The notes below the pieces were generated by a model, which was not told where the DNA came from, searched no databases, and worked only from the letters and a program-made list of their open reading frames with translations. From the IMG/VR virus record IMGVR_UViG_2690316175_000006: a stretch of DNA of 10,588 bases; one strand, written 5' to 3'. A program made the translations under genes and the position numbers. The first letter of the stretch is position 1; every line of letters starts with the position of its first letter. This document shows positions 2,689 through 6,437 of the stretch, piece by piece. This DNA comes from a virus (Duplodnaviria; Heunggongvirae; Uroviricota; Caudoviricetes).

Positions 2689-2867
2689 AGGAAACAAAAC
2701 AGAAACAGCAATTGCCGTTACCTGTTGTTACCATGGCAAGTAAACGTATCTCAGGCGAGCGCATTGCGCCGTTCTGACGCAGATAAACTAGCCTGGATAG
2801 ATGGTGCTGGCAATAAAAAATAGCGTTTTCTTATCGGTGTCGGTAAGATTGCTGCGGGTGCTTGAGG

Positions 2868-2903
2868 CTGTCTGCCTCGGGTATGTCACTGTAAGGCAGA
2901 CAG
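2868..2903 (+). promoter_or_regulatory. hok leader stem-loop (perfect 10-bp stem), copy 2
   Basis: ctgtctgcct pairs with aggcagacag; covaries with the copy 1 stem. Confidence 0.45.
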
Positions 2904-2967
2904 AGAAAAGCCCCAGTTAACATTACGCGTCCTGCAAGACGCTTAACATTAATCTGAGGCCCAATCT

Positions 2968-3180
2968 ATGTCTCACAAATGTAGGTTAGCCTCTTACGTG
3001 CCGAAAGGCAAGGAGAAGCAGGCTATGAAGCAGCAAAAGGCGATGTTAATCGCCCTGATCGTCATCTGTTTAACCGTCATAGTGACGGCACTGGTAACGA
3101 GGAAAGACCTCTGCGAGGTACGAATTCGAACCGGCCAGACGGAGGTCGCTGTCTTCACAGCTTACGAACCTGAGGAGTAA
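2968..3180 (+). CDS. mok: Mok-like leader ORF in frame with hok (70 aa), copy 2
   Basis: Same architecture as 1000-1212; codons 2-5 differ (SHKC vs NGKS). Confidence 0.45.
   Translation: MSHKCRLASYVPKGKEKQAMKQQKAMLIALIVICLTVIVTALVTRKDLCEVRIRTGQTEVAVFTAYEPEE
3025..3180 (+). CDS. hok: Hok/Gef-family type I toxin, 51 aa, copy 2
   Basis: ORF identical to 1057-1212. Confidence 0.85.
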   Translation: MKQQKAMLIALIVICLTVIVTALVTRKDLCEVRIRTGQTEVAVFTAYEPEE

Positions 3181-3248
3181 GAGACCAGGCGGGGGAGAAA
3201 TCCCTCGCCACCTCTGATGGGTCAGGCATCCTCAATGCACCCACACTT

Positions 3249-3275
3249 AACCCGCTTCGGCGGGTTTTTGTTTTT
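3249..3275 (+). terminator. Rho-independent terminator of hok copy 2
   Basis: Identical hairpin and T-run to 1281-1307. Confidence 0.7.
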
Positions 3276-4816: not shown

Positions 4817-5197
4817 ATGACCGAGCGCATAGAATTTGTTTTACCTTACCCGCCGACGGTGAACACTTACTGGCGTCGTCGTGGCAGCACATATTTTGTA
4901 TCAAAAGCCGGGGAGCGTTATCGCCGGGCAGTGGCGCTTATTGTTCGCCAGCAGCGGCTGAAATTAAGCCTGTCCGGAAGGTTGGCAATAAAAATTATTG
5001 CAGAACCACCGGATAAGCGCCGCCGTGACCTGGACAATATTCTGAAAGCGCCGCTGGATGCGCTGACGCATGCGGGGTTGCTAATGGACGATGAGCAGTT
5101 TGATGAAATCAATATCGTTCGTGGTCAGCCAGTATCTGGTGGACGTCTGGGGGTGAAGATTTATCCCATAATGCTTGAAGGGCAGGTCAAAAAATGA
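4817..5197 (+). CDS. rusA: Crossover junction endodeoxyribonuclease RusA (Holliday junction resolvase)
   Basis: 126 aa with YPPTVNTYW and PDKRRRDLDN motifs matching the RusA catalytic region; stop overlaps the next start (ATGA). Confidence 0.85.
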   Translation: MTERIEFVLPYPPTVNTYWRRRGSTYFVSKAGERYRRAVALIVRQQRLKLSLSGRLAIKIIAEPPDKRRRDLDNILKAPLDALTHAGLLMDDEQFDEINIVRGQPVSGGRLGVKIYPIMLEGQVKK

Positions 5198-6015
5198 AAC
5201 TGGAAGATTTACCGAAATACTACTCCCCAAAATCCCCCGGCCTGACTGATGCATCGGCCTCAACGTCGAAAGATGCGCTGAGTATCACTGATGTGATGGC
5301 CGCGCAGGGCATGACACAGAATCGGGCTGAGATGGGGGTTTCTGCGTTCCTTGGGAAAATGGGCATTAGTATGAATGACAGAGAGCGGGCAACAGAATTG
5401 CTGACAGAATATGCACTCAGTCGGTGTGATCGCGTGGCGGCGTTAAGAAAACTCCCGGCAGAAATAAAACCGGCAGTGATGCGTATTATGGCTTCGTATG
5501 CGTTTGAAGATTATGCCCGTAGCGCGGCGAGCAAAAAACAGTGCCCCTGCTGTCACGGAAAAAAATTTATTGAAAGCGAGGTTTTTACAAACAAGATCCA
5601 GTATCCGGATGGTAAGCCGCCGGTATGGGCAAAGTGTACGAAAGGTGTGTATCCGTCTTACTGGGAAGAATGGAAAAAAGTCAGGGAGGTGGTAAAAGTT
5701 GCCTGTCCGGAGTGTGGCGGAAAGGGTGAGGTTTCCACCGCCTGTAAGGATTGCCGTGGGCGTGGTGTCGCCATTCATCGTGAAGAGTCGGTAAAACGTG
5801 GTATGCCTGTTATCAGAGACTGCCAGCGTTGTGGTGGTCGTGGCTATGAAAGACTACCATCAACGGAGGCATTTAATGCTATATGCGAGGTGACAAACCA
5901 GATAACACGCGCGTCATGGGAAAAAACAGTTAAGAAATTTTATGATGCGCTGGTGACCCGGTTTGATATTGAAGAAGCATGGGCTGAGCGGCAGTTAAAA
6001 AAGGTAACTAGGTAA
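5194..6015 (+). CDS. Late-gene antiterminator Q-like protein (QuuQ-like) with four CxxCxGxG zinc-finger repeats
   Basis: Position directly after rusA and directly before a promoter-terminator pair; CPCCHGKK, CPECGGKG, CKDCRGRG, CQRCGGRG motifs. Confidence 0.55.
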   Translation: MKLEDLPKYYSPKSPGLTDASASTSKDALSITDVMAAQGMTQNRAEMGVSAFLGKMGISMNDRERATELLTEYALSRCDRVAALRKLPAEIKPAVMRIMASYAFEDYARSAASKKQCPCCHGKKFIESEVFTNKIQYPDGKPPVWAKCTKGVYPSYWEEWKKVREVVKVACPECGGKGEVSTACKDCRGRGVAIHREESVKRGMPVIRDCQRCGGRGYERLPSTEAFNAICEVTNQITRASWEKTVKKFYDALVTRFDIEEAWAERQLKKVTR

Positions 6016-6020
6016 CAAGG

Positions 6021-6048
6021 TTGATTTTTCCGGAATCTGTGGTAAATT
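6021..6048 (+). promoter_or_regulatory. PR'-like late promoter
   Basis: TTGATT-16 nt-TAAATT, 6 bp after the Q-like stop; GGTAAATT resembles the lambda PR' -10 region as recalled. Confidence 0.5.
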
Positions 6049-6054
6049 CGTCAT

Positions 6055-6120
6055 AACTATGGGCGTTTTATGCCTGACGTTAGAAGAGTTTCTACAACCC
6101 GCCGCCGAGCGGGTTTTTTA
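6055..6120 (+). ncRNA. Short PR'-to-tR' transcript (about 66 nt), candidate small RNA
   Basis: Inferred from the promoter at 6021-6048 and terminator at 6097-6120; analogous to lambda 6S-type RNA. Confidence 0.35.
6097..6120 (+). terminator. tR'-like rho-independent terminator
   Basis: acccgc-cgccga-gcgggt hairpin followed by a T-run. Confidence 0.65.
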
Positions 6121-6239
6121 TGACTGAAATCGCGTCAGTACAGTAAACGCGCTGGTGGCGGTGAATACCTGTCTTTCAGCTTGCTGGCTTTTTCGACAAG
6201 AGTTATTGGTGTGTCACGTTAACCGGAAAAGGAAAAGAC

Positions 6240-6437
6240 ATGCTAAAACAGCAGGATATGACAGAAACCGCCAGAGTGGTGTTTAATGAATTAAGCGTTA
6301 CCGAACCGGCGACAGTCGGGGAGATAGCGCAGAATACTTACCTTTCACGCGAACGCTGCCAGTTAATACTGACCCAGCTGGTTATGGCGGGTCTGGCAGA
6401 CTATCAGTTCGGTTGTTACAGACGCCTTCCGCAGTGA
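6240..6437 (+). CDS. Small (65 aa) putative helix-turn-helix DNA-binding protein
   Basis: AAGGA RBS 7 nt upstream; segment ATVGEIAQNTYLSRERCQLILTQLVMAGLA looks like a winged-helix HTH. Confidence 0.45.
   Translation: MLKQQDMTETARVVFNELSVTEPATVGEIAQNTYLSRERCQLILTQLVMAGLADYQFGCYRRLPQ

Follow-up and report, generated by a model that had tools for sequence, protein, structure and literature searches.

Gene content of the window

The stretch of DNA analysed here (10,588 nt of IMG/VR record IMGVR_UViG_2690316175_000006; termed the window) comes from an E. coli lambdoid prophage and represents its late-regulatory region. Its 5′ part carries two hok/sok modules, genes for DUF551, DUF968 and RusA proteins, a Q-like gene, and the promoter–terminator site that is the subject of this report. 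After the site come an ORF of 65 amino acids, a gene for an N6/N4 DNA methyltransferase, four tRNA genes, and two STnc100 elements flanking an IS3-family transposase. The late genes themselves lie beyond the end of the window. In a 99.3% identical locus of strain TOE17, holin and lysozyme genes are located downstream on the same strand, and the lysis genes of phage SfV are likewise downstream on the same strand. A consensus scan identified further plus-strand terminators in the window at 6424, 8090, 8312 and 9779.

Several other features of the window were recorded. The two hok/sok toxin–antitoxin copies (887–1298 and 2856–3266) match the Rfam sok family with 112 and 118 bits, and each includes a 70-amino-acid Hok/Gef ORF. 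They are followed by identical terminators (1281–1298 and 3249–3266) and by identical promoter-like sites (1321 and 3289), and the repeat is a direct duplication of approximately 2 kb inside a nin-like region. The four tRNA genes (7687–8075) comprise one of Met/Ile2 type with a CAT anticodon, one Arg(TCG) and a pair of Arg(TCT) genes. Three tRNAs are present in Sakai Sp12 and in the TOE17 locus, which is 99% identical to the window; the window's additional copy is the second Arg(TCT). The STnc100 sRNA elements (8152–8341 and 9621–9809) score 123.6 and 81.6 bits, and the transposase ORF between them (8563–9381, minus strand, with rve and HTH_21 domains) occupies a 'moron' position 3′ of the tRNAs. 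The IS3 element may have inserted into this part of the late operon, or have duplicated it.

The gene upstream of the site encodes a lambda-family Q protein

The gene directly upstream of the site, on the same strand (5194–6015, plus strand), encodes a protein of 273 amino acids that the original prediction had described as Q-like. The protein matches Pfam PF03589 with an E-value of 1.6e-53 (179 bits), and a phmmer search of solved structures aligns it with lambda Q (PDB 7UBM, E=3.5e-41), which places it in the lambda-Q family of antiterminators. PF03589 corresponds to this family in the three-family classification of Q proteins (PMC9388147). The ORF is complete and is 94–100% identical to many other copies.

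Residues 1–113 and 182–273 align by phmmer to residues 1–113 and 116–207 of lambda Q, and the intervening approximately 68 residues (114–181) form an insertion at the junction of the 'body' and the zinc-ribbon 'arm'. The insertion contributes two extra CxxC pairs, giving four CxxC motifs in the whole protein, and there is a sub-threshold match to the Pfam family DnaJ_CXXCXGXG. Q proteins of the type found in SfV and in the K-12 prophage Qin (250 amino acids) have a shorter insertion. The 68-residue insertion may go together with the differing promoter spacer described below, which is 16 nt long and unrelated in sequence.

Promoter, predicted start site and putative pause element

A promoter of the form TTGATT-16-TAAATT had been proposed directly after the Q gene, and both hexamers, with this spacing, are present there on the plus strand. 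The Q stop codon occupies 6013–6015, and the −35 element TTGATT (6021–6026), read from the sequence, begins six bases past it, in the position equivalent to TTGACT of lambda PR′; it is invariant in 81 close relatives. The 16 nt spacer TTTCCGGAATCTGTGG (6027–6042), a putative Q-binding element, is nearly invariant in the same 81 sequences. An extended −10 element, TGg-TAAATT, follows (6040–6048, with TGg at 6040–6042 and the hexamer at 6043–6048), whose hexamer is the same as the −10 of lambda PR′. After a gap of 6 nt (CGTCAT) comes the predicted transcription start, an A at 6055, and the gap has the same length in lambda and SfV. A start near 6055 had been anticipated, and this is exactly the position homologous to lambda +1, giving 65 nt to the end of the U-tract.

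In lambda, the sequence AACGAT at +1 to +6 resembles a −10 element and is re-bound by σ70; it is followed by GGG, which is 'discriminator-like', and AACGAT-GGG causes the +16 pause that Q requires (PMC4005639). The window carries a lambda-like putative σ70-dependent pause element, AACTATGGG, that starts exactly 6 nt past the −10 hexamer and consists of AACTAT at +1 to +6 and a discriminator-like GGG at +7 to +9 (6055–6063, plus strand). A2, A5, T6 and the GGG are key positions for recognition of a −10 element by σ region 2. The pause at +16 in lambda (PMC4005639) predicts, by analogy, that the polymerase would pause here at +16 to +18 (6070–6072). A further 32 bases separate the pause element from the terminator.

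The promoter hexamers match the consensus at only 8 of 12 positions, and the site is not listed by the promoter scan, whose cut-off was 9. Sites matching at 9 of 12 positions show no excess in the window (9 found versus 11.9 expected from shuffled sequences), and the hexamers by themselves are a chance-level match. A search for the composite pattern TTG-N19-TANNNT-N6-AANNATGGG gives a single hit in the window (6021–6063) and none in 200 shuffled versions; the pattern consists of the bases common to the cassettes and was chosen post hoc, once the site had been seen. The pause-element context and the conservation in related loci, neither of them part of the original prediction, lift the promoter above chance. 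As far as sequence can indicate, a σ70 promoter and a σ-dependent pause element are located between Q and the late genes.

The spacer of the window has no alignable similarity to that of lambda except for TGG beside the −10 element. Spacers are strongly conserved inside the Q clade and differ between clades, a pattern that would be expected of a Q-specific site; binding of Q to this element is putative. An 8 bp perfect palindrome, TTCCGGAA, is present within the spacer (6029–6036). We considered it as a site for dimeric Q and rejected it, as it is broken to TTCCCGAA in variants from O157:H7 and E. albertii, and it is probably incidental.

The terminator and the predicted short RNA

An intrinsic terminator had been expected at 6097–6120, and the consensus scan finds it, as a tR′ hairpin and tail spanning 6096–6121 on the plus strand. 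Its sequence, AACCCGC-CGCCGA-GCGGGTT followed by TTTTAT, forms a stem of 7 bp (6096–6102 paired with 6109–6115), including five G–C pairs, with a 6 nt loop (6103–6108) and a U-tract at 6114–6119. The predicted free energy of folding is −11.2 kcal/mol (z = −2.6), a value equalled by three of 200 shuffled sequences, and the terminator is above chance. It lies 3′ of the pause element and 5′ of the late genes.

The predicted start and the terminator would together define a PR′ RNA of about 65 nt (65–67 nt; 6055–6119, plus strand). As a whole this RNA is unremarkable beyond the terminator, with a predicted minimum free energy of −19 kcal/mol (z = −1.6). RNAalifold also predicts a hairpin at the 5′ end, in which the RNA of the pause element (+1 to +9) pairs with +19 to +27 (6055–6081). 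Equivalent hairpins are predicted in the lambda sequence (L003, 788–812; −9.1 kcal/mol, z = −2.5) and in the SfV sequence (L001, 2501–2527; −7.7 kcal/mol), and also in most relatives; that of the window is weaker (−6.3 kcal/mol). Among 17 sequences the hairpin is 97% paired. Selection on the 5′ hairpin is nevertheless not established, because the only changes are one-sided (G–C to G–U and U–A to U–G), the fold in the window is weaker, and the +3/+4 variants of the window's own clade would break its outer pairs.

The layout recurs 3′ of Q genes in about nine genera

We scanned one genome per species and recovered 16 loci with Q homologues, at 39–97% identity. In 15 of these, from about nine enterobacterial genera, the Q gene is followed by the promoter, pause element and terminator in the same layout: a −35 element, a spacer of 16–17 nt, a TAnnnT −10 element, 6 nt, AAC/TGAT-G/AGG and a terminator, which ends 54–71 nt past the predicted start. 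The genera with such a cassette include Escherichia (with E. albertii), Mangrovibacter, Atlantibacter, Scandinavium, Phytobacter, Kosakonia, Buttiauxella and Entomohabitans. IMG/VR contributed 80 additional copies with at least 95% Q identity. The pattern was present in 94 of the 95 loci examined, which represent 49 distinct sequences. In an alignment of 17 diverse sequences, AACGATGGG is found in 14; across genera T15 and T17 are at least 90% conserved, and the T17–G18 step is conserved.

The terminator is maintained as a structure in these 17 sequences. Its stem is paired in 95.7% of the alignment cells, and one A–U pair is replaced by C–G in four sequences, a compensatory change; when the partner columns are slid against each other, pairing falls to 30–54%. 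Across genera the arms AACCCGC/GCGGGTT become ACCTCGC/GCGGGGT and GACCTCGCC/GGCGGGGTC.

Nucleotide diversity (π) was calculated by segment for the close clade of 81 sequences. The region from the −35 through the −10 element, including the spacer, has a π of 0.0095, about five times lower than that of third codon positions of Q (0.0535) and compared with 0.016 at second codon positions. Diversity is 0.142 in the 6 nt gap between −10 and +1 and 0.156 in the terminator loop; the terminator arms have values of 0.018–0.036, and the RNA stretch from +27 to +41 has 0.029. Within the pause hexamer only +3 and +4 vary, and A2, A5, T6 and GGG are constant. AACGAT is the majority form, and AATGAT, AATAAT, AAAGAT, AACAAT and AACTAT also occur. 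The window's AACTAT is a minority form that recurs at no fewer than six further loci: three share the L021 sequence, two that of L062, and a sixth is reported at 100% Q identity (L021, L022). Such a distribution of diversity would be expected if promoter, Q site, pause element and terminator are all functional, and not for neutral intergenic DNA.

Between Q clades, the transcribed part can be aligned from +1 onwards while the spacers differ; the match to SfV, for example, begins at 6055. When a 281 nt query was compared by BLAST with 5,426 complete E. coli genomes, at least 80% of its length was found in 1,409. The Q and cassette of the window are also present in the O157:H7 prophage Sakai Sp6, downstream of ECs_1524 (L103, 170–275; NC_002695.2, about 1,554,170–1,554,274), and in K-12 Qin an SfV-type cassette lies downstream of ydfT (L105, 4450–4358, minus strand; K-12 positions about 1,642,421 to 1,642,360).

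A module boundary at the end of the terminator

BLAST searches of phage and E. coli genome collections revealed that matches linked to Q end at 6121, and that matches linked to the downstream ORF start at 6096. Alignment of the 81 relatives likewise places a mosaic joint at 6121/6122, where the Q-linked module ends and alternative downstream modules begin. From 6122, just after the U-tract, two unrelated continuations are found: 66 of the 81 sequences proceed with ATTGCGGAATTAA and tRNAs, and about 15 with ATGACTGAAATCG, as in the window, which leads to the 65-amino-acid ORF and the methylase gene. Because the BLAST matches end here and the continuation switches at 6122, Q, the promoter with its spacer, the pause element and the terminator are inherited as one unit in phage mosaics. 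Joint inheritance fits a protein that must recognize its own promoter.

A nearly identical terminator core, AACCCGCC...GCGGGTTTTTT, was also observed 3′ of Q genes of unrelated families in Sakai Sp12 (L101, downstream of ECs_2267) and Sp15 (L106, downstream of ECs_2975). This suggests that the terminator hairpin is a common site at which Q modules and late modules are joined by recombination.

A probable Q-dependent late-gene switch

Taken together, these data make it very probable that the site switches on the late genes of a lambdoid prophage and represents a lambda-Q-family member of the Q-dependent regulatory cassettes defined in PMC9388147. A lambdoid PR′-qut-tR′ arrangement was the core of the original prediction, and it is borne out by the homology of Q, the lambda-like spacing and pause element, and the covarying terminator. 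The sequence comparisons themselves show that the upstream gene encodes Q, which elements are present and at what distances, how they are conserved and covary, and where the module ends. For the start site, the pause, the binding of Q to the spacer and read-through, we infer from lambda the following course of events.

RNA polymerase carrying σ70 would start constitutively at PR′, using the −35 element at 6021 and the extended −10 at 6040–6048, and would initiate at A6055. With σ still held, its region 2 would re-bind AACTAT-GGG within the first nine transcribed bases, and the polymerase would pause around +16 to +18. Without Q, the enzyme would escape slowly and terminate at the hairpin and U-tract (6096–6119), ending at 6117–6121 and leaving an RNA of about 65 nt and silent downstream genes. 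After induction, accumulating Q would bind its site in the spacer and load onto the paused complex with NusA, as described for lambda Q (PMC9388147). The modified polymerase would then resist tR′ as well as the plus-strand terminators at 6424, 8090, 8312 and 9779, and read-through would permit expression of the methylase gene, the tRNAs and the lysis genes past the end of the window.

Read in this way, the locus allows the start site, pause element, terminator and module boundary of the late switch to be annotated to the base for a widespread type of Q. At least 1,409 of 5,426 complete E. coli genomes carry this type, and it occurs in O157:H7 prophages such as Sakai Sp6. In O157:H7 prophages, late transcription drives lysis together with the genes that ride along. 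Natural variation has in effect already mutagenized a lambda-family pause element and a putative Q-specific spacer: the hexamer changes only at +3 and +4, the spacer is nearly invariant, and the RNAs would measure 54–71 nt.

Alternative interpretations

Compatible with a Q-dependent switch is the proposal that the RNA of about 65 nt also acts in trans as an Hfq-dependent sRNA made constitutively in lysogens. Such a role is a possibility by analogy, and the RNA is a candidate member of the expanding group of sRNAs that arise from antitermination switches. The original prediction had stated that terminated RNAs of this kind serve as regulators in Stx phages, and this is correct: the RNA is StxS, an Hfq-binding regulator of rpoS and stx1B that derives from PR′–tR′ (PMC7547250). 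Lambda 6S RNA is also bound by Hfq, with a few RIL-seq partners (bioRxiv 10.1101/2024.10.31.621285). The window RNA is built like sRNAs in general, with a terminator hairpin at its 3′ end, a U6 tail and an unpaired A/G-rich stretch at +27 to +41 that is moderately conserved in the clade, with the π of 0.029 given above versus 0.0535 at Q third codon positions. However, between genera this stretch varies in both sequence and length and shrinks to 5–9 nt in three loci (L007, L018 and L019), the best duplex of +1 to +41 with other RNAs of the window does not surpass those formed by shuffled sequences, and the RNA matches no Rfam family and lacks similarity to StxS. The Sakai Sp6 equivalent is absent from the orphan Hfq peaks (Tree et al., 2014, Table S2), but that list leaves out any peak lying 100 nt or less from a gene (PMC7547250), so its absence is uninformative. 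Overall we regard a trans-acting function as possible but rather unlikely. Slightly less likely still is the fuller proposal, made by analogy, that the RNA of this Q clade would be expressed constitutively in lysogens, associate with Hfq and act in trans as an sRNA with no sequence relation to StxS, lambda 6S RNA or HnrS; its conserved 5′ hairpin, found also in lambda and SfV, would aid stability or loading of Q. Well over a thousand sequenced E. coli genomes, O157:H7 (Sakai Sp6) among them, would then encode such an sRNA.

A different concern is that the cassette is a fossil, in which the promoter, the AACTAT pause element or Q is dead and regulated read-through has ceased. The IS3-family transposase downstream, between the STnc100 copies, suggests that the prophage may be defective, as does the nearly identical TOE17 locus, which has a truncated early region and pseudogenes beside its integrase; AACTAT is, moreover, a minority variant. 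Against this, the Q ORF is full length and closely matched by many copies, all critical positions of the −35, −10, pause element and terminator are intact, and AACTAT retains A2, A5 and T6 and recurs elsewhere. We judge a dead cassette to be improbable. As the prophage may be defective, an intact switch may still never be thrown in this particular host.

More doubtful still is the view that the hairpin is a mere terminator of the early or Q transcript, with the promoter a chance match and no separate short RNA. The below-threshold hexamers would permit it, but a chance match would not be expected to stay invariant in 81 relatives amid varying neighbouring bases, nor to hold an exact 6 nt gap to AAC(G/T)ATGGG in about nine genera and lambda. 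Finally, a leader-peptide attenuator, in which translation of a 22-codon ORF (6059–6127) controls the terminator, can practically be dismissed because the ORF is not conserved (7 codons in L010, with another frame and end in SfV and L018): its ATG is ever-present as part of AACGATGGG, and it crosses the terminator to a TGA past the predicted RNA end, but it lacks a Shine–Dalgarno sequence, no alternative antiterminator pairing is predicted, and the weak Rfam Trp_leader match (21.8 bits, gathering threshold 41) covers the terminator hairpin only.

Comparison with known systems

When the whole window was searched at Rfam gathering thresholds and the site at E≤10, no family covered the site. The sub-threshold matches there, to Trp_leader, isrK (15 bits), STnc and P9, are all driven by the terminator. 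Membership in the IsrK family (RF01394) was rejected, as the score of 15 bits compares with a threshold of 50 and the alignment rests on the terminator.

HnrS of EHEC (EcOnc10-12; PMC13502914), published in 2026, resembles the predicted RNA in being 66 nt long, multicopy and prophage-encoded, with an intrinsic terminator at its end. Identity with HnrS was rejected: placed by the EcOnc10-12 coordinates (Tree et al., 2014, Table S2), HnrS in Sakai Sp12 lies about 7 kb from Q, where it neighbours Rz and the terminase genes and runs in the opposite direction to the late operon, and the two RNAs share no sequence similarity.

The resemblance to StxS of Stx1 and Stx2a phages (PMC7547250) is one of arrangement, with a constitutive late promoter, terminated just 3′ of Q, that yields a short RNA in lysogens. 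The Q protein is of another family there (160 amino acids in Sp15), and the primary transcript of 258 nt is processed to 74 nt. A blastn-short comparison with the Sakai Sp15 Q–stx1A intergenic region matches only a 24 nt terminator-like hairpin, and we rejected the idea that the window RNA is StxS itself. The function of StxS has been demonstrated, whereas that of the window RNA is a candidate only.

The cassettes of Shigella phage SfV and of the cryptic K-12 prophage Qin (ydfT/quuQ) have a Q of the same family, the same pause element and terminated units of about 62–65 nt. From +1 on, SfV can be aligned to the window at 80% identity, and the downstream module with the 65-amino-acid ORF is common to both. 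SfV has the layout TTGCAT-17-TAAGAT-6-AACGATGGG, with a hairpin that carries a terminator annotation. The annotations of SfV and Qin list no RNA at these loci, and a literature search found no sRNA for ydfT/quuQ. The SfV/Qin type differs from the window in its Q, which has 250 amino acids and is only about 40% identical, and in its promoter and spacer (TTGCAT-17-TAAGAT with an A-rich spacer).

Lambda PR′ (NC_001416) reads TTGACT, 17 nt, TAAATT, TGACTC and AACGAT-GGG. Lambda and the window share a homologous Q, an identical −10 hexamer (TAAATT), the same 6 nt gap to +1, the pause element AAC(G/T)AT-GGG at +1 to +9, an intrinsic terminator before the late genes, and a 5′-proximal hairpin that involves the pause-element RNA. 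They differ in the spacer, which in lambda has 17 nt and in the window 16 nt with a TGn extended −10, the two sequences being unrelated; in the distance from the Q stop codon to the −35 element (43 nt versus 6 nt); and in the 68-residue insertion with a second pair of CxxC motifs in the window's Q. The 65-amino-acid ORF downstream has no homology to lambda orf-64, and the terminated RNA, 193–194 nt in lambda (6S), would be only about 65 nt in the window. The cassette is a compact and very widespread version of an ordinary, well-understood element and is not new in kind.
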